From the IMG/VR virus record IMGVR_UViG_2602041863_000006: a stretch of 10,580 nt of DNA; one strand, written 5' to 3'. This document shows positions 1 to 10,580 of the stretch, piece by piece. The DNA is from a virus. Lineage: Duplodnaviria > Heunggongvirae > Uroviricota > Caudoviricetes. The notes under the pieces are model-generated. The model made no database searches. It was not told the DNA's origin and worked only from the letters and a program-made list of their open reading frames with translations. Positions within the stretch are counted from its first letter, which is position 1; every line of letters starts with the position of its first letter. The position numbers and the translations under genes were made by a program.

Positions 1-207
1 AGTTCCATTCCCCACCACCGTGCCACTTGATGCACCATCAAGCCAGTCGAAATTCATACCTCCACTGTTTGGTCTCCTTAATGGAACGGTATGTGTATGT
101 GCGCCAGCACTATTTGCAGTACCAGATACATTGTGGGTATCGCCATCATCGGTATCGGTGATGTCGTCCTCTGCGGGTCCGGGTTCAGTTCTGGCAACCA
201 TACTCAT
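1..207 (-). CDS. Hypothetical protein, N-terminal 69 codons only (gene runs off the left edge); Gly/Ser/Thr-rich with an AGAHTHT motif reminiscent of phage tail-fibre repeats
   Basis: ATG at 207..205 (minus) preceded by GGAG with an 8-nt spacer; the frame stays open to position 1; an in-frame stop lies upstream at 265-267. Translation: MSMVARTEPGPAEDDITDTDDGDTHNVSGTANSAGAHTHTVPLRRPNSGGMNFDWLDGASSGTVVGNGT. It does not resemble a P2 major capsid protein (gpN), which would be expected after O. Confidence 0.4.
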   Translation of the reverse strand, partial: MSMVARTEPGPAEDDITDTDDGDTHNVSGTANSAGAHTHTVPLRRPNSGGMNFDWLDGASSGTVVGNGT

Positions 208-302
208 GGGGTTCACTCCTGAAAAAAATCGGGCGGTGGGTGCGCGGTGTAAACGGTCACGGAGTCAAACCGGAACACCGCGCACGCCGCCCGCTGACGG
301 GG

Positions 303-890
303 TCAGTCGTTAATCCCCATTACGCGGTTAAACCACTGGGTGCCTTCTTCCTGGCGTTGTTCTGCCATTTCGATGATTTCAGACTCGATGGCTTCGGAAA
401 TGAGCGGTGCTTCACCCTGGACACTGTTGAACGTCATCACCGCCTGACGCTGCTGTGCCGTGAATTTCAGGCGCTCAGTGCCCAGGCTTGCCGGGGTGTC
501 GGTCATCGCCAGCCCGACCAGATAGGCGCGCCCGTTAACGGAGAACTGCGGGTGCAGTTCGATACTGGAATAGATTTTCTTGCCGTCCGCGACAAGCTGC
601 TTCATGCGCTCGGTCGGTTCGATTTCTGCATACAGCGCAGTACGTCCGGCCAGCGGACCTTCCGTAATGTCTTCCGTACTCAGTGCGGTGACATCGCCCA
701 TTGCGGAAAATTCGCTTGACGGGCATGGCGAGAGATAGTGCTCAACGTTCACGCGGGCAGCGTAAACATCCGGGTTGAAGTTCTCGGCGGCTTCACGCAG
801 ATGCACCGGACTGATTTCACGGCCATCAACAGTTGATCCGGAGACAGCCACGCGAAACTTTTTGCGGGATGTCTTTTTTTCATTAGCCAT
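303..890 (-). CDS. O: Capsid scaffolding protein, P2 gpO-like, apparently shortened (~195 aa versus ~284 aa in P2)
   Basis: ORF 303..923 (-). The N-terminal two-thirds (KKFRVAVSGSTVDGREIS...VEHY...YLVGLAMTDTPASLGTE) matches my recollection of P2 gpO. Preferred start is the ATG at 890..888, which has a GAGGGG Shine-Dalgarno 8 nt upstream; the ATG at 923 has none. The C-terminal tail is unlike gpO. Confidence 0.7.
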   Translation of the reverse strand: MANEKKTSRKKFRVAVSGSTVDGREISPVHLREAAENFNPDVYAARVNVEHYLSPCPSSEFSAMGDVTALSTEDITEGPLAGRTALYAEIEPTERMKQLVADGKKIYSSIELHPQFSVNGRAYLVGLAMTDTPASLGTERLKFTAQQRQAVMTFNSVQGEAPLISEAIESEIIEMAEQRQEEGTQWFNRVMGIND

Positions 891-923
891 AGTTTTTGCC
901 CCTCTGACTGGTTCTTCAGTCAT

Positions 924-1044
924 GATGGCAAAGCGTAACAGGCTGATACAAAGGGCTTTTGTTGTAAGAAAACGGCCAGAACAGGGGGTTAAGGAGAACG
1001 GTTTCGCGCGCGGGTAATCTTCCTGTAATTACTCAGGGGGAGCA
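924..1044. promoter_or_regulatory. Divergent intergenic region between O(-) and P(+); expected site of divergent late promoters
   Basis: 121 bp non-coding spacer between two divergently oriented start codons. In P2 this interval holds the Ogr-activated late promoters PO and PP. A canonical TGT-N12-ACA dyad was not found at correct spacing (closest is TGT-N15-ACA at 963-983). Confidence 0.4.
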
Positions 1045-2796
1045 ATGATTCAGGACGCTTTTGTGCGCCAGCGTGCGCGGCAACTTTACTGGCAGGGTTA
1101 TCCGCCCGCAGAAATATCACGTCTGATGGGAATAAACCCGAACACGATTTATGCGTGGAAAAAACGCGACCAGTGGGATGAAACGCCACCCGTGCAGCGT
1201 GTCACGCAGTCCATCGATGCGCGCCTCATCCAGCTTACTGAAAAACAGAATAAAACAGGTGGTGACTTTAAGGAAATAGACCTGCTGACCCGGCAGCTTA
1301 AAAAACTGCATGATGGCCAGCCGGATGCGACGGCCACAGGAAAGAAAGGCCGGGCGAAAAAACTTAAAAATCATTTCACGCCGGAGCAGATTGCCGCACT
1401 GCGGGAAAAAATCATCAGCAGGCTGGAGTGGCATCAGCGGGGCTGGTTTGACTCCCTGAGCCTTTGCAGGGAAGCCGGGATACGTAACAGGATGATCCTG
1501 AAATCCCGACAGATTGGGGCGACCTGGTATTTTGCACAGGAAGCACTGCTGATGGCGCTGCGTGACGATGTGGCACAACCTTACCAGCGTAACCAGATTT
1601 TTTTGTCTGCGTCGCGTCGTCAGGCGTTCCAGTTTAAAAGCATTATTCAGAAGGCCGCGGCTGAAGTTGATGTGGAGCTGAAAGGGGGCGATAAAATCAT
1701 CCTCTCCAACGGCGCAGAACTGCATTTTCTCGGTACTTCTGCTGCGACGGCACAGTCCTACACAGGCAATTTTTATTTTGATGAATTTTTCTGGGTCAGT
1801 CGCTTTGCTGAACTGCGCAAGGTGGCTGGCGCTATGGCAACCCTCAGCGGGCTGCGACGCACCTACTTCTCCACGCCATCCACCGAAACGCACGAGGCAT
1901 ACGTCTACTGGAACGGCGACCGCTGGAACGAGAAAAAGGCCGCGCATAAACGCCAGCGTTTTTCTGTGGACTGGAAAACGCTGCATAACGGGCTTATCTG
2001 CCCCGACCGGACGTGGCGGCAAATTGTCACGCTGGAAGATGTGGTTAATCACGGCTGGAAACACACCGATATTGACGAAATTCGTGATGAAAACACCGAA
2101 GACGAGTTCCGCAATCTCTATATGTGTGAGTTTGTCCGCGAAGGGGAATCGGCATTTAACCTGAATATCCTGATTGGCTGCGGTGTTGACGGATACGACG
2201 ACTGGAAAGACTGGAAACCTTTTGCTCCCCGCCCGATGGGGAATCGTCCGGTATGGATTGGGTATGACGCAAACGGCAGCAGTGGAAACGGCGACAGCGG
2301 CGCTGTGTCCGTGGTGGTTCCTCCGGCTGTTCCTGGTGGCCGTTTTCGAACGGTGGAGACGCGACGCGTTCAGGGGCTGGAGTTTGAAGAACAGGCCAGA
2401 GTCATTGAAGAGTTCACGTGTCGCTACAACGTGGAACACATCGGCATTGATGCGACTGGCGGGCACGGGGATGCCGTTTATCAGATAGTGAAACGGTTTT
2501 TCCCTGCTGCTATTCCGTACACCTTCACGCTGTCATCAAAACGGTCGCTGGTACTGAAAATGCTGCAAATAATGCGTGCCGGGCGGTGGGAATACGATCG
2601 CGCCGAACGCGAGCTGGTCGCGGCCTTTAACGCCGTGCGTAAGGTGAAAACACCGGGCGGCTTTATCACTTACGAAACGGACCGCGCGAGGGGGATCAGC
2701 CATGGCGACCTTGCGTGGGCAACCATGCTTGCTGTCATTAATGAACCGATTGGCGGCGAAGGAGAAAACGAGCGTTTCACGGTTATGGAGTTCTGA
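1045..2796 (+). CDS. P: Terminase ATPase (large) subunit, P2 gpP-like
   Basis: 583-aa ORF with a G-rich Shine-Dalgarno (AGGGGGAG, 1035-1042). N-terminal HTH-like segment (YPPAEISRLMGINPNTIYAWKKR) typical of gpP-family terminases. Size matches P2 gpP (~590 aa). The stop overlaps the downstream portal start (ATGA at 2794-2798). Confidence 0.85.
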   Translation: MIQDAFVRQRARQLYWQGYPPAEISRLMGINPNTIYAWKKRDQWDETPPVQRVTQSIDARLIQLTEKQNKTGGDFKEIDLLTRQLKKLHDGQPDATATGKKGRAKKLKNHFTPEQIAALREKIISRLEWHQRGWFDSLSLCREAGIRNRMILKSRQIGATWYFAQEALLMALRDDVAQPYQRNQIFLSASRRQAFQFKSIIQKAAAEVDVELKGGDKIILSNGAELHFLGTSAATAQSYTGNFYFDEFFWVSRFAELRKVAGAMATLSGLRRTYFSTPSTETHEAYVYWNGDRWNEKKAAHKRQRFSVDWKTLHNGLICPDRTWRQIVTLEDVVNHGWKHTDIDEIRDENTEDEFRNLYMCEFVREGESAFNLNILIGCGVDGYDDWKDWKPFAPRPMGNRPVWIGYDANGSSGNGDSGAVSVVVPPAVPGGRFRTVETRRVQGLEFEEQARVIEEFTCRYNVEHIGIDATGGHGDAVYQIVKRFFPAAIPYTFTLSSKRSLVLKMLQIMRAGRWEYDRAERELVAAFNAVRKVKTPGGFITYETDRARGISHGDLAWATMLAVINEPIGGEGENERFTVMEF

Positions 2797-3842
2797 TGAG
2801 CAGAAAAAATAAAAAAGTGCGCATGAGTTCACGCATTGATCTCGCTGATGCGCTCAGGAAAGAATCATCGCTCAGTGCATTCACATTTGATGGTCCTTAT
2901 CGCCTGACCGGGCATGACCTGCTGGACAATATGTACTGTGCTGATAACGGGCGGTGGTATGAAACCCCGGTGGACTGGTACGGTCTGGCAAGAGCTGCCC
3001 GGCAAACGTCCTGGCATCAGTCTGCGCTTTACTTTAAGCGCAATGTATTGCTCGGCTGCTATATTCCGCACCCGCTGCTTTCCCGGCAGGATTTCTCGGC
3101 GCTGGCGCTGGACTGGTTTGTGTTCGGTAACGCATTCCTTGAGCTTCGGAGCAATATGCTCGGCGAACCGCTTAAATTACGGCACGCCCTGGCGAAATAC
3201 ATGCGACGCGGAAGCGATCTTGAATCATGGTGGTATGTGCAGGATGGCAAGGATGCGTTTCAGTTTCGTCCTGGCAAAGTGTGCCACCTGATGAATCCGG
3301 ACATTAACCAGGAAATCTACGGCATGCCGGAATATCTTGGCGCATTACTCTCGGCCAGCCTGTCTCATTCGGCGGACATGTTCAGAAAACTGTACTACGA
3401 CAATGGATCCCACGCCGGGTGCATCATCTACATCGGTGCAGCGCAGGTAAACCGCGAAAGCATGGACTCCCTGAAGGAAACGCTACAGGGTGCGCGTGGT
3501 GGTGGTGCATTTAAAAACGTGCTCATTCACGCGCCCAACGGGGGCAAAGAAGGTGTGCAAATTTTGCCGTTCCAGCAGATCACCGCAAAGGATGAGTTCA
3601 TGAATGTTAAGGCGGCATCCCGTGATGATGTGCTGGCTGCGCACCGCGTTCCGCCGCAACTGATGGGGGCGATGCCGGGCGAAAAAAGTGCGTTTGGTGA
3701 TGTGGAGAAGGCAGCGCGGGTTTACGCAATTAACGAGCTGATGCCCGTAATGGAGGCCATGAAGCATATCAATGACTGGCTTGGCGAAGAGGTGATCCGC
3801 TTTAACCCTTACGCACTGCTGGACACTCAGCCCACATCCTGA
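2796..3842 (+). CDS. Q: Portal protein, P2 gpQ-like
   Basis: 348-aa ORF, translationally coupled to P (ATGA overlap), GGAG at 2787-2790. Size and position downstream of P match P2 gpQ (~344 aa). Confidence 0.85.
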   Translation: MSRKNKKVRMSSRIDLADALRKESSLSAFTFDGPYRLTGHDLLDNMYCADNGRWYETPVDWYGLARAARQTSWHQSALYFKRNVLLGCYIPHPLLSRQDFSALALDWFVFGNAFLELRSNMLGEPLKLRHALAKYMRRGSDLESWWYVQDGKDAFQFRPGKVCHLMNPDINQEIYGMPEYLGALLSASLSHSADMFRKLYYDNGSHAGCIIYIGAAQVNRESMDSLKETLQGARGGGAFKNVLIHAPNGGKEGVQILPFQQITAKDEFMNVKAASRDDVLAAHRVPPQLMGAMPGEKSAFGDVEKAARVYAINELMPVMEAMKHINDWLGEEVIRFNPYALLDTQPTS

Positions 3843-3868
3843 CGCGCTTCGCTTGTCTGCTGCTTCGC

Positions 3869-3893
3869 CGGGGCATAAAAAATTTATGCCCCG
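3869..3893. other. Perfect inverted repeat (11-bp arms, 3-nt loop) 27 bp downstream of the portal stop; possible terminator or protein-binding palindrome
   Basis: CGGGGCATAAA-aaa-TTTATGCCCCG. No U-tract follows on either strand, so it is not a classic intrinsic terminator. Confidence 0.35.
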
Positions 3894-4316
3894 ACTCTCC
3901 AGCTCCTGTATCAATCAGATAATTTCACGACATCTTCCAGCTTATCGCCATCATCGACGATCAGGCTCTTACGCAATCCCACCGCGTTGACTGCATGTTC
4001 TTGCCGCCTCAGTGCGATTTTGACGGCCTTATCTGTCACCCCATCAAATCAAAAGCCCTCACGTCTTTTTCACGCTCAGTGTGAGAAATACAGCCATTCT
4101 GTTGTGTCGCTGCGACATCGTTCAGGGAATGCTATTTACCCCCTGAAACGCGGGCTGTTCCCCCGTCACCTGCGCGCAGAAAAAGTGCGTTTTTTTGTGC
4201 ACGCACGGATCCTTGACGGATCCAGCCGCCACGCGGGCCGGAAGGGCAAAAAGTCGTTCAAAATAATTGTGCAAATTTGTGCACTATCGTGCATGTAAAT
4301 TCATAAAAAAATTACA

Positions 4317-4339
4317 GAAAAAAGGCCGCTTTCGCGGCC
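4317..4339 (-). terminator. Rho-independent terminator for the ATPase-peptidase operon
   Basis: GGCCGC-tttc-GCGGCC hairpin (4324-4339) followed on the minus strand by a run of 7 T (complement of 4317-4323). It lies 8 bp past the peptidase stop (4347-4349). Confidence 0.6.
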
Positions 4340-4346
4340 ATAAAAA

Positions 4347-6551
4347 TTACGTGTCGAGAGAAATTTGTGTGCGCAGTTGAATAGGATTCAGAATTGTATA
4401 TCGCTGGCGAATAACATTATATAAATCAAAGTCTTTTACCCTTACGCTTATTACCATCGCATATTGCATATCAGGGGCTGAAACTCCCTTAACATGGCGC
4501 GAAGAATCTCGGGCATGATACCGTATATCAAAAACTGGATCGCTTAATAATGTATCAGCACTGAACTTTTTGCTTCTGTGCAAACAAGTTTCCCACTTAT
4601 GACCTTCACTCCTACACTCCCTTTCAGTCTTATACTGGCTTTTTTGACCAAAGAAATCATCTGTATCGGTATCGTCAAGGCCGAATCTTGGGCGGAAAGT
4701 TACCTGCATACCGGCCCTTGTATAGTTTACTGAATGTTCAGGATCTACTGGGGTTTGAATGCATAAAGTAGCGGTAAGCTCAAATGCTTCGTCAAAGGGA
4801 ACATCAGGGAATGGGATCGGTGCCCTTAAATATTTATTTTTTGCTAATGAACCATAGTAAATTACTGTAGCAGTATCATTTGGACAATCGATTAAAACGT
4901 TAGGATCCTCACTAAACCGTCCCCAACCGATATGTTCACGCGAATATTTTCTTGATGTTTCAGCATGATGAACAAGCAACGCTTTCAATGCAATGGTGTT
5001 CAATGGAGTTCCTGATAGAGCCGCAACTCCAGCGGCCGTTCTCAATGCTAATGGAGAGGCATAACTGGTTCCTTGAACTCCAACTATAGAACCAAGCAAA
5101 GGGTTGTAAGTGTAAAAAGGCTCGTCGTCGCTTCCACCAAAAATAACACCATCAGGTTTAACGAATCCGGGGCTTCTGCCTGGGCCAATACAGCTATATG
5201 GTGCCCGCCCCCATTTTTCACCGCTACGATCAGCAGCACCAATCGCTAGCGCGTTTACCATATCGGAAGGAGGTTGTATTCTCGCTGCATCACCGTCCTC
5301 ATTGCCATCATTCCCAACAGCAACAGTAAGTAATATCCCATGCTTAGCACAGATTTGGTCTAAAACAGCAGTCCATACATGAACCTCATCATCACCAATT
5401 GGAAGATGAGGACCAATACTTAGATTAGCGAACTTATAGTCACCACTATCAAGAACGGACTGTATTTTCTTAAGGACATCAAATAAATCCCAATTGCCAT
5501 TGTCACCTGATGTCGGTGAAAGAACTCTATAATGATCTACATTCATAAACGGTCTTTTAAAAGAAGGTGCATTTTCCTCGACACGTCCGAATAAGAAAGT
5601 GGATGTTACTTCATTACCGTGCTGCAATAATAATCCGCTTGTTTCTTTGGTGTCTGGATACACGTATTCCGTAACCCAATTACTCAAGTCAGCTGTCCCC
5701 AAGCCACCATCAAAAATGGCAATACGTTCGGATTCAAGAACAGCTTTAGAATTAGGGAGCTCCGGTGTAACTATATTAGATAACTTTCTGACAATGTTCG
5801 GCTGAGTACACCTGAGAGACGGCATCGGCCGCACAACGCGGATTAATGAAAAATCGAGTGTTTTTTTCATATCTTCAGGTCGCGCGTGTGCAACGATGAA
5901 AGTCAGTCCACCAACTTGGATTCTACTTTTGTAATCAACAGAGACACCATATTGTGCCGCATAGCTAATATAGGCTTTAACGATATCATCGTCTTCAACC
6001 CCAGCATGAAGAACCACTTCAAATTTTATCAAATCACTTTTCGCATGCTCAAAATTGCGTGCTCTCTCTTTTCCTTCAAAAAAGCTAACACTTTCAATTT
6101 CGATCAAATCCTTTTGTACGCCCTTCGGAGCTGTAGGGGAATTTAAAATTTCCTTAAATCTTATAACGGCATCATCATCACCGCTAACAAACAGTTGCGC
6201 CGTTACTAAGTCCTTATTCTGATCGCACTGACGTGCCGCTTTCCGTGGGCGAATGATTACCTGACGGCTACCGACATCCCGTAAACCTGTCGCTCTAAGT
6301 AATCCTTCCGGAAAGTAGCTTTTACCCAAAAACGCTGGGTGTAAAGTTAAATTGAATACACTCTCCCCCCTTGGCTTAGCCGCATCATCCAAACTGCGAA
6401 AGCGTGAGAGTAAAGTATCAATCTCTGGGTTTAAATGCTCCCTTACTTCTTCAAGAGTATAGGGATAGCGCTTACCATCCCTTCCTTTAGGCAAAGGTTC
6501 CTTTTTTGTCAGAACATGACCGTTACCTAAAAGTAAGTTCCTTTCCATCAT
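4347..6551 (-). CDS. ietS: Subtilisin-like (S8) serine peptidase, 734 aa, with a ~270-aa N-terminal region and ~200-aa C-terminal region of unknown function; candidate effector of an IetAS-like defence pair
   Basis: Catalytic triad motifs in subtilase order and spacing: Asp in IAIFDGGLG (D281), His in LLQHGNEVTS (H311), oxyanion Asn in AVGNDGN (N414), Ser in GTSYASPLAL (S496, codon complement of 5064-5066). The start ATG overlaps the upstream ATPase stop (ATGATG, 6546-6551) with GGGGG 8 nt upstream. AT-rich codon usage unlike the flanking phage genes. Gene symbol is from recall of the Gao et al. 2020 system and is unverified. Confidence 0.85.
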   Translation of the reverse strand: MMERNLLLGNGHVLTKKEPLPKGRDGKRYPYTLEEVREHLNPEIDTLLSRFRSLDDAAKPRGESVFNLTLHPAFLGKSYFPEGLLRATGLRDVGSRQVIIRPRKAARQCDQNKDLVTAQLFVSGDDDAVIRFKEILNSPTAPKGVQKDLIEIESVSFFEGKERARNFEHAKSDLIKFEVVLHAGVEDDDIVKAYISYAAQYGVSVDYKSRIQVGGLTFIVAHARPEDMKKTLDFSLIRVVRPMPSLRCTQPNIVRKLSNIVTPELPNSKAVLESERIAIFDGGLGTADLSNWVTEYVYPDTKETSGLLLQHGNEVTSTFLFGRVEENAPSFKRPFMNVDHYRVLSPTSGDNGNWDLFDVLKKIQSVLDSGDYKFANLSIGPHLPIGDDEVHVWTAVLDQICAKHGILLTVAVGNDGNEDGDAARIQPPSDMVNALAIGAADRSGEKWGRAPYSCIGPGRSPGFVKPDGVIFGGSDDEPFYTYNPLLGSIVGVQGTSYASPLALRTAAGVAALSGTPLNTIALKALLVHHAETSRKYSREHIGWGRFSEDPNVLIDCPNDTATVIYYGSLAKNKYLRAPIPFPDVPFDEAFELTATLCIQTPVDPEHSVNYTRAGMQVTFRPRFGLDDTDTDDFFGQKSQYKTERECRSEGHKWETCLHRSKKFSADTLLSDPVFDIRYHARDSSRHVKGVSAPDMQYAMVISVRVKDFDLYNVIRQRYTILNPIQLRTQISLDT

Positions 6552-7630
6552 TTAATCCCCCACTTTTGTAATTTATTCGCGATTGTTGGATGTGAAACAC
6601 CAACTAATTCAGCTATCTTCCTATTTGAAAAACCGTCAAAATGATATTTAATTATATTGAGATCATTATCGCTAAATTCATCCAATGAAACCCTCTCCGT
6701 AATTACGGCTTCTATTAATGAGCTTTCAAATGGAATATTTCTAAGTACCTCATTCTTTTTGGAGAAATTCAAAATACGGTTAATGATGGCAAAGGACATG
6801 CCATCTAATAATGGTGCAAGTTTTTTAGATAGTTCAGGTTCAATATTATGATTGACTAAATATCTATCTATCAGTTCTACTGATGGCATATTAAATTTAA
6901 GGATGTGCTCAAATCGACGCCAAACAGCCGGATCTAAGATATCAGGGTGATTAGTCGCAGCAACAAGAAGCGAGGTCGCTGGCCACTCATCTATGGTCTG
7001 TAGGAGTACAGTAACTAAACGTTTTAATTCTCCAACGTCCCTGTCATCATCACGTCTTTTTGCAACAGCATCAAATTCATCAAGCAAAAGGACACATGGT
7101 TTCTCTTTGGCATAATCCATAACGGATTTAATATTATTACCTGTTTTTCCCAAAAGAGAACTCATTACAGATGAGAGATCCAATGTTAAAAGAGGTAAAT
7201 TTAACTTTGCAGCAAGCCAATGTGCGGACATTGTTTTGCCTACGCCTGGCGGGCCAGAAAGTAAAACCGTCTTCACAGGTTCAAGACCAGCTTTGAACAA
7301 AGAAACAGCATTCTCTCTTTCGTTAACAATTGACTCCAGCTTCTTTGAGATATCCGTATTCCATACAGGTTCTTCAACAATTGCGTTGACAGATGTTTCC
7401 TGCAAAAGGTTTCGTCTGGAGTCTCCATCCACAGGCATAGGAGCCTTACTAGATGCCCCACGTAATACTGTTCCCTCAGCAATTAACGAAGCCAGCTTAG
7501 AAGCTAAAGCCTCATCATTTTTACGGATGTTGTTAATCATCTTTCTGCATAGGAGTGTAAATGCATTTGCGTTGCCTTTGATGCCTTGCTCGATGAGTTT
7601 GAAAAGTTCATCCTCCCTCACGTTTACCAT
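6548..7630 (-). CDS. ietA: AAA+ ATPase (classical AAA clade) with C-terminal helix-turn-helix; candidate ATPase partner of an IetAS-like defence pair
   Basis: Walker A GPPGVGKT (complement of 7232-7255), Walker B VLLLDEFD, sensor and Arg-rich segment (ATNHPDILDPAVWRRFE), C-terminal HTH-like NRKIAELVGVSHPTIANKLQK. Preferred start is the ATG at 7630 (MVNVRE...), which has GGGGG upstream; the ORF-track start at 7675 has no Shine-Dalgarno. Gene symbol is from recall and is unverified. Confidence 0.85.
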   Translation of the reverse strand: MVNVREDELFKLIEQGIKGNANAFTLLCRKMINNIRKNDEALASKLASLIAEGTVLRGASSKAPMPVDGDSRRNLLQETSVNAIVEEPVWNTDISKKLESIVNERENAVSLFKAGLEPVKTVLLSGPPGVGKTMSAHWLAAKLNLPLLTLDLSSVMSSLLGKTGNNIKSVMDYAKEKPCVLLLDEFDAVAKRRDDDRDVGELKRLVTVLLQTIDEWPATSLLVAATNHPDILDPAVWRRFEHILKFNMPSVELIDRYLVNHNIEPELSKKLAPLLDGMSFAIINRILNFSKKNEVLRNIPFESSLIEAVITERVSLDEFSDNDLNIIKYHFDGFSNRKIAELVGVSHPTIANKLQKWGIK

Positions 7631-7934
7631 AAAACCCCCAATAAAACATAAGCTTGTGTAAGCTGGTAACTGCATTGATGAAAATCAGTGCCTAATGTTA
7701 CCACTCTTGCTGGCGTTATTCAAAGAGTATCCTCACTTTTTTACTGTATGGATAATCAGCATAAAATCTATCCAGTTGGGTTACTCGAACATATTGTCAA
7801 TACTTGTTTCCAACGATTGATCAGTTCTACAGTTTTATCTCCTTCACTTGTGTTGGCAGCATGCTTATTCCTGAACCAGCTCGATTACTTGGCCATTTGA
7901 GAAAGATGTGTAGATCTTCTGATGGTTTGTATTG

Positions 7935-7965
7935 GAACGGGGTGCATAGTGATTTGCACCCCGTT
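7935..7965. other. GC-rich inverted repeat between parR and the AT-rich island; possible bidirectional terminator or boundary element
   Basis: AACGGGGTGCA-tagtgattt-TGCACCCCGTT, followed on the + strand by TCTTTATGTT. A second short palindrome CAGGGCG-aata-CGCCCTG at 7988-8005 sits just past the parR stop. Confidence 0.35.
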
Positions 7966-8008
7966 CTTTATGTTATGGGATTGGTGGCAGGGCGAATACG
8001 CCCTGATG

Positions 8009-8320
8009 TTATTCAGGAAATAACGCCCGGATATTTCCGGCCATCTGACTGGTTATCTGTGCGGTTGGTACTGGCTGTGACTCGGGGCGTTCTGTCCTGG
8101 TTTGTGTCACTGATAACGTCTCATCGTCAGCCCATGCAGCCAGTCGGTAAGCCTCTGCCGGATTCATTTTCAGAAGTGCCAGCCCGGCCAGAAAAGCCAC
8201 GCGTTGGCCGCTTTTGCGGGCTTCTGGTGTAAGGCTGTCCAGCCATGTGCATGCTTCGCCTTCGTTCTTGACGGCGGCGGGCTTCAGATAGAAACTTATC
8301 CGTCTGGTTGGTGTCGTCAT
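8009..8320 (-). CDS. parR: ParR-like small centromere-binding protein (103 aa)
   Basis: ATG at 8320..8318 preceded by AAGGAG; starts 4 nt after the parM stop, as in plasmid R1 parM-parR. Weak similarity to R1 ParR in the N-terminal part (RRISFYLKP...GLALL). The ORF-track start at 8455 overlaps parM and is rejected. Confidence 0.6.
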   Translation of the reverse strand: MTTPTRRISFYLKPAAVKNEGEACTWLDSLTPEARKSGQRVAFLAGLALLKMNPAEAYRLAAWADDETLSVTQTRTERPESQPVPTAQITSQMAGNIRALFPE

Positions 8321-8324
8321 TGGT

Positions 8325-9284
8325 TTACTCCTTGTCCATTGCGTACAGCCCATTAACCAGAGCAAACTGTGGCACTCCGTCCGCGATGAAAGTCGCATTA
8401 ACTCCGCAGGCTTCGCGGATAGCGGGTGCCACAATCTCCGCCCCTCCACCGACAACCATCACCCGCCCGTAACCCGAAAAAACCGCCAGCGCGCGGATCA
8501 CGCGTTGTTTCAGTGTTTCTTCCTTTTCACGAATAACCGCCATCAGGCTGTTGTAATGCGCGTCATTGTGGATGTGCCGGCGCAGCCAGGCTTCATCATG
8601 GCGATGTTCGATAATGGTATTGGCGATGTGGTGACTGGTACGCATACCGTTAGTGGCCATCACCGACAGTACGGCATCGGCCATCAGGGAAACGCCTACG
8701 TGTGGATCGCAAAACACCTGGCTGATACCTGCCAGTTGTCCCTGAACCTTTGCCACATCCAGCGTGGTTCCTCCTAAATCCACAATCAGCAGGGATTCAA
8801 ACGGACTCATGTCAGCCAGTGCTTTAAAGCCAGCCGGAATGGATTCAGGCATAACCCGCACGTTACGGATAGTGAATGCCTCACCGTTCTGGTACTCCAC
8901 CGGGCGCATAACGTTCGCTTTTTTGCGGTTGATGTTGGCCATGTCCGGCTGTGCGTTTGTGTCGAAATATTCGCTCAGTGGCAGGGTGACAACCACATCC
9001 ACCTCCTGTGGTGTGATGCCTGATTTGACCAGCGCGTGGTGAATGGCGATTACATTCACATCGCTGTACTGGTATTGCGTGTCGGTTGTCTGGACAAAGC
9101 GATCGCTGACCGGATCAAAACCATAGCGCACGCCATCAAGCATGTAGTTCGCAGGCTGCGAGCCGCCGAACGGCGCAGACCATTCCGACTTGAAGCTGTT
9201 CGGGCTGATGGCGTTGCGGCGTTCGCCGTTCTCAGTCCATGCCAGCTTGATGTTGGTGGAGCCGTCGTCGATACAAATTTTCAT
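8325..9284 (-). CDS. parM: ParM/StbA-like actin-type plasmid segregation ATPase (319 aa)
   Basis: N-terminus MKICIDDGSTNIKLAW...ISPNSFKSEW...YQYSDVNVIAIHHAL closely resembles plasmid R1 ParM (from recall). Size matches R1 ParM (~320 aa). AGGAAA Shine-Dalgarno 6 nt upstream of the ATG. Confidence 0.85.
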   Translation of the reverse strand: MKICIDDGSTNIKLAWTENGERRNAISPNSFKSEWSAPFGGSQPANYMLDGVRYGFDPVSDRFVQTTDTQYQYSDVNVIAIHHALVKSGITPQEVDVVVTLPLSEYFDTNAQPDMANINRKKANVMRPVEYQNGEAFTIRNVRVMPESIPAGFKALADMSPFESLLIVDLGGTTLDVAKVQGQLAGISQVFCDPHVGVSLMADAVLSVMATNGMRTSHHIANTIIEHRHDEAWLRRHIHNDAHYNSLMAVIREKEETLKQRVIRALAVFSGYGRVMVVGGGAEIVAPAIREACGVNATFIADGVPQFALVNGLYAMDKE

Positions 9285-9310
9285 GTCGATTTTCCTTATG
9301 TTGATTAATT

Positions 9311-9430
9311 AATCGTTTACGGGATTTTTAAATCCCGTTTTTGCCTGTTTTATGCTTGCTTCATATATCGCGGCGCGTTTTTTGCTCATTTACGGGTTTT
9401 GTGAATCCCGTTTCTGTCTGTTTTTTGTTT
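9311..9430. repeat. parC-like centromere and promoter region: two ~36-bp direct repeats 73 bp apart, each containing an ACGGG...CCCGT inverted repeat
   Basis: Repeat 1 TTTACGGGATTTTTAAATCCCGTTTTTGCCTGTTTT (around 9316-9351); repeat 2 TTTACGGGTTTTGTGAATCCCGTTTCTGTCTGTTTT (around 9388-9424). The perfect palindrome ACGGGATTT-tt-AAATCCCGT at 9319-9338 overlaps a plausible minus-strand promoter for parM (-35 TTTAAA, -10 TAATTA). Repeat 2 lies inside the 3' end of the upstream ORF. Confidence 0.5.
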
Positions 9431-10580
9431 CCACTGGTCAGGCCACCCCGCAGCAGGTCTGCTTTGCGGCGGGCGCGTTCAGTGGTTTCACTGATTCTCT
9501 GTGCGTGCTCTGCGTCGCGGATGGCGCGCAGCATGTCAGAAAGCACTGTAACGGGTGTTTTCATGGTGTTCTGGTCCTGCTGAAGTGTGGATGCCAGGCG
9601 TGCGGCGGCTTCGGGGTCTGATGTCCCGAGCTGTGCCAGATAGCTGGCGACCGGGTTATGGCGGATCTCCGTGCTGCTTACGCCGTGATTACGGCTCAAG
9701 TGCTGCCAGAGCTGCGTGATTCGGCTGTCCGGGCGGGTATCCGGTTTGCGTACAATTTCAAATCCCTGCGGTGCAATGATGCTGCCGTCGACGTACAGAC
9801 TGCCGCCCCGTAACAGGTGCTGCATCTGCTGTTCACCGATATGCAGGCCAAGGGATTCAGCAGACTCCCGCCATTCTTTAGCGAGTAACTCGTGGTTATC
9901 AGGCAAAGGCCGCGGCTGTTTGCGGCTCTGCGTCCAGTTCTGCATTTCATCACTGCTGTTTTTGGCCTGTTTGTCACGCAGCGAACGCATCAGCGCCCGG
10001 CGTTCGTGCCGTTTCAGTGAGCGCATCCATTCGTTCACTTCAACGCCGTCAGGGAGCTGCGGCCACGGTGTTGTCCGTTCTTCCGGCTGTTCTGTCCCGT
10101 TGTTGTCTGTTTCCTGTACACGGGGACAGTTATTGCCACGAGTCCAAGGGGCGGCAGGGCCGCCCTGAAGGTCAAAACCATTTTCGCGGGCGCTGTCTTC
10201 CGCTTCCTGTTTTCGTCTTACCAGCTTCCAGTTATCCGGATTCGTGCACACACGGGAGGATTCCCCGATGAGTGGCGACCAGATCCCGTAAATCTGTACG
10301 CCCTGTTCGCCGTAATCGTTCAGCTCATCTGCGAGGTCGTAGGCGGTGCGAATCAGGTAGTCTTTGCGTGGAACAAGTACGCCGCCCTGTTTCTCTATGT
10401 AGGTGGCAAAACATCCGGCATCAGCGGCAGCAAGAACCGCATCCATTGCGTCATCCTTCAGCCGTTGCGGGCCTTCGGGGTTGCGTGCCATCTGGCTGGC
10501 AAGGCGACGCAGTTCACGCCACACCTGACGGGAGGGGATACCAAAGAACTGGAACTGGCGGACCCGGTGAAGGCGCGCCC
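9361..10580 (-). CDS. Hypothetical protein, C-terminal ~406 codons (the 5' end is beyond the right window edge)
   Basis: The minus-strand frame is open from 10580 to the stop at 9361-9363; the ORF-track start at 10524 is an internal GTG. Contains a hydrophilic low-complexity linker (QEAEDSARENGFDLQGGPAAPWTRGNNCPRVQETDNNGTEQPEERTTPW). No motif I can name; function not assigned. Confidence 0.5.
   Translation of the reverse strand, partial: ARLHRVRQFQFFGIPSRQVWRELRRLASQMARNPEGPQRLKDDAMDAVLAAADAGCFATYIEKQGGVLVPRKDYLIRTAYDLADELNDYGEQGVQIYGIWSPLIGESSRVCTNPDNWKLVRRKQEAEDSARENGFDLQGGPAAPWTRGNNCPRVQETDNNGTEQPEERTTPWPQLPDGVEVNEWMRSLKRHERRALMRSLRDKQAKNSSDEMQNWTQSRKQPRPLPDNHELLAKEWRESAESLGLHIGEQQMQHLLRGGSLYVDGSIIAPQGFEIVRKPDTRPDSRITQLWQHLSRNHGVSSTEIRHNPVASYLAQLGTSDPEAAARLASTLQQDQNTMKTPVTVLSDMLRAIRDAEHAQRISETTERARRKADLLRGGLTSGNKKQTETGFTKPVNEQKTRRDI

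Follow-up and report, generated by a model that had tools for sequence, protein, structure and literature searches.

The first 923 nucleotides of the window, which is the whole 10,580-bp stretch of DNA that was analyzed, very probably bear the marks of two deletions that arose by illegitimate recombination in a P88-like Escherichia coli prophage. We favor this reading because the DNA on each side of the scars is contiguous with that of P88-type phages apart from the missing pieces, and no evidence contradicting the two-deletion explanation was found. One deletion (A) would have taken out about 2.18 kb across a 3-bp overlap, leaving a 195-aa remnant of gpO that holds the protease domain only, and the other (B) would have taken out about 6.26 kb across a 6-bp overlap, so that codons 1-24 of L read on in frame into the final 112 codons of H. 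The parts of this region, and the two head genes that adjoin it, are as follows:

1-135, minus strand: codons 774-818 of the tail-fiber gene gpH, in frame with the gpL fragment (L'); the open reading frame runs off the window.
135-140: deletion junction B, a 6-bp GGGTAT overlap (eight of nine bases with the flank) at which gpL codon 24 passes into gpH codon 774.
136-207, minus strand: codons 1-24 of gpL (head completion/stabilization), the 5' part of the fusion ORF, identified by alignment with gpL of NZ_CP024232.1.
208-310, minus strand: end of gpM that was retained, together with the M-L spacer in its native form, which includes the signals for starting gpL translation; identified by its match to strain 5283.
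303-890, minus strand: truncated gpO (capsid scaffold/protease) pseudogene, with codons from 890 to 306 and the stop at 305-303, 195 aa.
311-313: deletion junction A, a 3-bp TAA overlap at which gpO codon 193/194 is joined to the last 4 nt of gpM.
891-1044: divergent O/P intergenic region of 154 bp, with late promoters predicted by P2 synteny.
1045-2796, plus strand: gpP-type large terminase subunit, intact, 583 aa (Pfam Terminase_5, Terminase_6N and Terminase_6C).
2796-3842, plus strand: gpQ-type portal protein, intact, 348 aa (Pfam Phage_portal).

An exact-protein look-up with the 195-aa product identified the window, over its whole 10,580 bp, as the reverse complement of scaffold KI544479.1 in assembly GCA_000497015.1. 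The product itself is an exact match to ESS95454.1 of E. coli CE549, which is probably the source strain. By megablast, phage P88 is 98.3% identical to the window in DNA, and the window has matches in 1,230 of 5,426 complete E. coli genomes; on this similarity we assign it to a P88-like prophage (Xuanwuvirus, Peduoviridae, P2 family) of an E. coli lineage. The order of genes is the same as in P88 and in the prophage of E. coli strain 5283, running from gpA through ParM, ParR and a cargo hotspot to Q and P and then to O on the opposite strand, and the head genes have the P2 layout (Q<-P<- ->O), with O opposite to P and Q. In the window gpA, ParM/ParR and IetAS are intact, and the large terminase (WP_023486980.1) and the portal (WP_000087812.1) have accessions common to the window lineage and the intact prophage. 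The hotspot cargo is IetAS in the window, whereas P88 has other small genes there; IetAS is a defense pair, and the hotspot in which it lies, neighboring the region described here, is of the P2 type.

The O/P intergenic stretch is contiguous with P88 and strain 5283 and is unchanged relative to intact relatives by BLAST, and in the annotation of P2 the interval from P to O holds pO/pP and an activator site. The window has three matches to TGT-N12-ACA, the activator motif of P2 late promoters, which is no more than expected at random, and all three lie outside the O/P intergenic region. The noncoding stretch after Q, which holds the cos site in P2, is conserved with P88 up to about position 4294; a search of the window for the 19-nt cohesive end of P2 cos with up to three mismatches gave no match, and the P88-type cos evidently differs from that of P2.

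The missing DNA at junction A is visible directly in the relatives. In P88 and about 1,100 E. coli genomes, positions 135-4300 of the window fall into two aligned blocks that together extend over about 6.34 kb in the subject, and the extra subject DNA between them is annotated as the remainder of GPO, a P2-family major capsid protein and gpM. Alignment offsets against the intact prophage of strain 5283 give a size of 2,178 bp for deletion A, and what is missing comprises gpO codons 194-278, all of N (major capsid), and M (small terminase) except for its last 4 nt. Those 4 nt lie at 310-313 and overlap the junction, with only nt 310 falling inside the 208-310 part. On one side of the junction, positions 311-10580 are 99.86% identical to the strain 5283 prophage, and on the other side positions 132-313 are 99.5% identical to positions 9001-9182 of the prophage contig (L015), in which 9179 is the end of gpM and 9076 the start of gpL. 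In a three-way comparison the parental sequences account fully for the junction, and it contains no inserted or foreign DNA.

The gpO-like ORF (195 aa, or 206 aa from an alternative upstream in-frame ATG at 923) scores 241 bits with Pfam Phage_GPO (PF05929), of whose 268 positions the match takes in only 2-183; positions 184-268 are missing, whereas the gpO proteins of P88 (278 aa) and P2 (284 aa) each match the profile from end to end. Residues 1-193 are identical to P88 gpO, after which come a junction-encoded N-D and the stop. The preliminary description, which had been made from the window's letters and open reading frames, put the shortfall against P2 gpO at about 90 residues, and this was borne out, with 83 to 89 residues lacking relative to P88 and P2. 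The alignment to P2 gpO that it recommended for finding the breakpoint places the break at the equivalent of P2 residue 189, directly after P88 residue 193. The divergent C-terminal tail that it described did not stand up, since two residues (ND) are new and the rest is the ordinary divergence between P88-type and P2 gpO, which are 41% identical.

Residues D22, H51 and S109 of the truncated gpO align with D19, H48 and S107 of P2 gpO, where we take D19 and H48 to have protease roles alongside S107. In the P2 protein, residues 1-141 make up the protease domain, in which the S107A substitution is protease-dead, and procapsid assembly depends absolutely on the internal scaffold formed by residues 195-284 (PMC7552001). 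The likeness of the remnant to P2 gpO consists in the N-terminal serine-protease domain with its conserved D19/H48/S107 equivalents. The difference is that the scaffolding domain corresponding to P2 195-284 is absent and that no N gene comes after it: instead of the O-N-M-L order of the family, O' is followed by the M-L spacer and L', with N and M absent. As predicted from this domain content, the gpO remnant keeps the protease domain without the scaffolding C-terminal domain and is not a functional scaffold. The same ORF in NZ_CP024232.1, the closest complete genome, is already annotated by RefSeq as a pseudogene, "incomplete; missing C-terminus". Other truncated GPO entries are numerous in the databases; one form, named from Shigella flexneri and 148 aa long, occurs on 246 contigs, and remnants of this kind are thus commonplace.

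The many short GPO-family entries in databases might also suggest that nothing was deleted and that the window belongs to a natural phage family whose gpO is short and protease-only and whose genes are arranged differently. We regard this as extremely unlikely: the 193 residues are identical to those of a 278-aa gpO, the flanking DNA is contiguous with P88-type phages save for the missing 2.18 kb, the sister prophage of NZ_CP024232.1 has no capsid gene elsewhere, and most of the named short cluster entries bear "partial" in a source name. The 195-aa protein is a truncated 278-aa gpO and not the normal-length scaffold of a related phage family.

At the left edge of the window, positions 1-140 match NZ_CP024232.1 at 100% (positions 1603-1742 of L001, a stretch of that genome), near the 3' end of an 885-aa H gene, while the gpL part belongs to DNA that matches L001 from its position 7998 (window from 132). 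BLAST offsets put the DNA missing by comparison with NZ_CP024232.1 at about 6,264 bp, and deletion B has removed X, the holin, the endolysin, what remained of lysB/R/S, the baseplate genes V, W, J and I, and codons 1-773 of H. As at junction A, the two parental sequences explain everything in a three-way comparison, and foreign DNA is absent. The resulting minus-strand ORF, running from 207 to 1 and off the window edge, reads MSMVARTEPGPAEDDITDTDDGDTHNVSGTANSAGAHTHTVPL..., also given as MSMVARTEPGPAEDDITDTDDGDTHNVSGTANSAGAHTHTVPLRRPNSGG..., with tail-fiber sequence beginning at residue 25 and the motif AGAHTHT at residues 34-40. Beyond the window edge the ORF was read from two sister contigs (L005 and L006), in which the complete product has 136 aa, consists of gpL 1-24 and gpH 774-885, and ends ...NTVKNIAFNYIVRLA. 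It is followed colinearly in both by a tail-fiber assembly gene (Caudo_TAP), a hexapeptide transferase, gpU and the tape-measure gene.

The 136-aa ORF matches Pfam Phage_fiber (PF03335) with 26.2 bits against a cut-off of 20, and the 69-aa fragment inside the window had no Pfam match by itself. In the full-length H of the sister genome, the baseplate-attachment (PF12571), fiber-repeat (PF03406) and collar (PF07484) domains all lie within residues 1-719, and the fusion ORF, which keeps residues 774-885, lacks these N-terminal attachment, repeat and collar domains. It retains the C-terminal His-rich repeat/tip (PF03335) and has the tail-fiber assembly gene downstream. On the gpL side, the full domain of the family (PF05926, about 164 aa) is not present, with the first 24 residues alone remaining, and Pfam GPL found no match on the 136-aa ORF. 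The major capsid gene is indeed not next after O, as had been noticed at the outset, and what the left-edge ORF encodes is this gpL'-'gpH fusion rather than a capsid protein. The suggestion that the next gene is tail-fiber-like holds from residue 25 onward, where AGAHTHT and the gpH sequence lie, and fails for the first 24 residues, which are the gpL N terminus; likewise, the proposed search with tail-fiber profiles succeeded with PF03335 on the full 136-aa ORF, and the profile suggested for it, Phage_fiber_2, matches only the deleted N-terminal part of H.

Relative to the window, P88 and P88-like prophages additionally keep gpO codons 194-278, N, M, most of L, X, holin and endolysin, and also lysB/C, R, S, V, W, J, I and codons 1-773 of H. 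The strain 5283 prophage is about 99.9% identical in DNA over the retained genes but is intact. The closest complete genome, E. coli O6:H16 2014EL-1346-6 (NZ_CP024232.1), is 99.95% identical to window positions 132-10580, and its prophage has the identical junction A and truncated gpO. It differs in still having L, X, holin, endolysin, V, W, J, I and the 885-aa H, followed by the tail-fiber assembly gene, and in a separate 1,382-bp deletion of its own across a 3-bp overlap, which took lysC and R entirely and the greater part of lysB and of S; the site of that deletion falls inside the stretch removed by deletion B. The integration site of this prophage is in the pheA-raiA region, on the pheA-pheL side, and IS100 and methyltransferase genes separate the ogr/hok end of the prophage from raiA. 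Its annotation still includes an integrase, a repressor-like HTH protein, gpA, ParM/ParR, ogr and hok, and the sheath, tube, tape-measure, gpU and tail-fiber assembly genes are kept, with gpD in a shortened form only; no capsid gene is annotated anywhere in the prophage.

Junction A was found in 1 of the 5,426 complete E. coli genomes and junction B in none, and an exact 43-mer across junction B gave no match among GTDB species representatives, a result that shows rarity alone. An exact look-up among about 15 billion proteins found the truncated gpO on 12 contigs and the fusion ORF on 5. Among the contigs with the exact truncated gpO, both junctions occur in seven assemblies (the window and L005, L006, L007, L008, L010 and L011, drawn from NCBI isolates, Logan assemblies and ENA metagenomes), and junction A alone occurs in three (the closed genome CP024232, L004 and L012). 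Contigs with both junctions have 0 to 14 mismatches against the window. Because both junctions recur in seven near-identical assemblies, they are real, recent and clonally inherited in one lineage.

This recurrence also bears on the possibility of an assembly artifact, a short-read chimera in which gpL had been joined to a repeated tail-fiber segment. Repeated segments break or misjoin assemblies, and the window does end in a tail-fiber segment of which many P1-like plasmids and other prophages carry copies of about 98% identity. Nevertheless, the identical junction B is present in six other assemblies from different groups and pipelines, L005 and L006 run on colinearly past the fusion ORF as far as the tape-measure gene, the 6-bp overlap is far below assembler k-mer sizes, and junction A is present in a closed chromosome (NZ_CP024232.1), which together leave an artifact with a vanishingly small probability. 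The metagenome contig L012, which carries junction A, has 24 mismatches, all within window positions 1851-3590 (terminase/portal) and none within 1.5 kb of the junction, a pattern that a recombination patch or an assembly mosaic would produce. An independent recurrence of deletion A was considered for this contig and was rejected on the clustering of the mismatches and their absence near the junction.

The element is phage-derived, is integrated in the sister genome, and lacks essential virion genes that P88 and the strain 5283 prophage possess. From its gene content, the major capsid, scaffold, small terminase, head completion, holin, endolysin, baseplate and a functional tail fiber would all be absent, and the prophage would lack the means to form capsids, cleave cos, lyse its host cell, or produce baseplates or fibers. 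On this basis it is best classed as a cryptic (defective) prophage produced by ordinary decay, a kind of feature that is already understood; the pseudogene status of its gpO is, moreover, already recorded in RefSeq for the sister genome. The preliminary description was right that the prophage is defective, as the missing capsid, small terminase, lysis, baseplate and fiber genes attest when set against P88 and strain 5283. Its idea of an internal deletion is correct insofar as the capsid and morphogenesis genes are gone, although two independent deletions were responsible and not one. In the same way, its view that much of the tail module had been removed holds for the baseplate and tail-fiber genes, with which the lysis genes were also lost, but not for the sheath, tube, tape-measure, gpU and assembly genes, which are kept in the sister.

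The same description had offered, as its other possibility, a satellite-like derivative that retains only packaging genes. In its fullest form this would be a domesticated element, with the remnant kept for use and packaged in trans by a P88-like helper, and it draws on the intact portal, large terminase, gpA, ParM/ParR and IetAS, on the retained gpO protease domain, and on the conservation with P88, to about window position 4294, of the noncoding stretch after Q where cos lies in P2. The packaging module is not intact, however, since the small terminase gpM has been lost. With the small terminase and capsid gone and the sheath, tube and tape-measure genes kept in the sister, the pattern is the opposite of that in capsid-forming satellites and is unlike P4. 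The resemblance to P4-type and cf-PICI-type satellites is superficial and goes no further than integration and the possession of only some of the virion genes; those satellites have genes for capsid-size redirection or helper derepression, which the element in the window lacks, and the annotation of the sister prophage shows ordinary P2-family genes, with no hijacking genes of the sid/psu/delta type seen.

The reduced architecture is not conserved beyond one clone, unlike that of P4-type and cf-PICI-type satellites: neither a recurrent reduced form across diverged elements nor any helper-exploitation gene was found, and the junctions occur only in near-identical DNA, on 12 and 5 contigs in the protein look-up and in one and none of the complete genomes. 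The flanks are undiverged from the intact prophage of strain 5283, so selection has had no time to shape the architecture. A satellite-like or domesticated derivative is therefore highly improbable, and this part of the preliminary description is set aside, given a single clonal lineage, flanks nearly identical to an intact prophage, and a gpO that RefSeq already lists as a pseudogene.

A related and very unlikely suggestion is that the remnant is useful in what it still carries (IetAS, ParMR and hok, together with replication, portal, large terminase and a presumed cos) and so could become a helper-packaged, incipient satellite, or that the fusion ORF itself has a use. In the weaker variant, the gpL'-'gpH tip fragment, co-expressed with its assembly chaperone, might block receptors or poison tail-fiber assembly in superinfecting P2-like or P1-like phages. 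If the suggestion were true, the helper-mobilized remnant would be an incipient satellite caught at its origin.

Under the two-deletion explanation, both events would have proceeded by microhomology-mediated, RecA-independent illegitimate recombination or by replication slippage; RecA-independent illegitimate recombination and replication slippage are the usual route of prophage decay. Deletion A probably came first and deletion B followed in a sub-lineage, because genomes with A alone exist and no contig with B alone was found among those with the truncated gpO. The O' and L'-'H ORFs would then be by-products of deletion and not evolved genes: O' would be open only because a stop happens to lie two codons beyond the break of deletion A, and L'-'H only because deletion B happened to fall in frame, an outcome expected about one time in three.

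The importance of these deletions beyond correct annotation is small. ESS95454.1, now named "capsid scaffolding protein", should be labeled as a deletion remnant, a gpO pseudogene, and the 136-aa ORF as a deletion remnant that is a gpL'-'gpH fusion, and pipelines for prophage prediction or phage typing should score the element as defective. The element does offer a clean and datable case of stepwise prophage decay through short-homology deletions, for which both an intermediate with deletion A alone and an intact, near-identical relative are available, and in which the IetAS defense cargo would have outlived the phage that carried it in.

The prophage of the closed sister genome NZ_CP024232.1, which carries junction A only, has suffered a further loss relative to the intact, nearly identical prophage of E. 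coli strain 5283:

L001 (NZ_CP024232.1) 6412-6736, equivalent to L015 (strain 5283) 6123-7504: third deletion, in the sister genome

This third deletion, of 1,382 bp and with a 3-bp overlap, takes out most of both lysB and S, along with lysC and R in their entirety. In the same prophage, the annotation gives the gpD-type gene in shortened form, next to a partial ORF. Together, these lesions in a relative with junction A only indicate that deletion B struck a prophage that already had several defects. A second carrier of junction A, the ENA metagenome contig L012, has 24 mismatches that are restricted to the terminase and portal genes (equivalent to window 1851-3590), with none near junction A; their source is either a recombination event involving a different P88-like prophage or a mosaic of metagenomic assembly.

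At the left edge, window 1-140, the C-terminal segment of the tail fibre, matches tail-fibre genes of many E. coli plasmids at about 98% identity; these plasmids are non-mobilisable, roughly 90-115 kb in size, and look like P1-type phage-plasmids. What is shared here is a receptor-binding tip cassette, and this sharing is probably why several short-read contigs, including that of the window, have their ends a few dozen bases apart.

Beyond the portal gene Q there is a non-coding stretch and then a two-gene anti-phage defence system, IetAS, which is flanked on its other side by parR/parM/gpA:

3843-4346: non-coding stretch of 500 bp after the portal gene
4347-6551, minus strand: S8 peptidase gene of the IetAS pair, from PADLOC
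6548-7675, minus strand: AAA ATPase gene of the IetAS pair, from PADLOC

The non-coding stretch is conserved with phage P88 as far as about 4294, and by synteny with P2 it should be the location of cos; a search of the window for the P2 cos sequence found none. PADLOC identified IetA with E=2.9e-89 and IetS with E=5.7e-41 (window 4347-7675), at the position where P2-like phages have their old/tin cargo hotspot. Strain 5283 also has the pair in its intact prophage, with protein accessions identical to those of the window, whereas P88 has different small genes at this position.

The right part of the window encodes replication and segregation functions:

8009-8320 and 8325-9284, minus strand: ParM actin-like segregation ATPase and its small Plasmid_stab_B-family partner, from Pfam for ParM
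9361-10580, minus strand: gpA-type replication endonuclease, C-terminal part, from comparison with relatives

The 387-amino acid ORF at 9361-10580, for which a Pfam search returned no match, is the C-terminal portion of a 940-amino acid gpA-type endonuclease cut by the contig end. Within it, four clustered substitutions in 10208-10302 (10208, 10213, 10242 and 10302) set the window apart from L003 (NZ_CP024232.1), from L004, and from the sister contigs L006, L007, and L008, a comparison that excludes sister contigs L005 and L010, which end before the cluster and have no differences from the window over 1-9766 and 1-10019, respectively. Strain 5283 has the same four substitutions and nine others further along gpA (10276-10540), and from this pattern the cluster looks like a small recombination patch. 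Finally, ParM, which contains the Pfam StbA_N and ParM C-terminal domains, and the Plasmid_stab_B-family gene adjoin gpA, and both are likewise present in the P88 annotation, a hint that an episomal phase may exist in the P88-like phage group.
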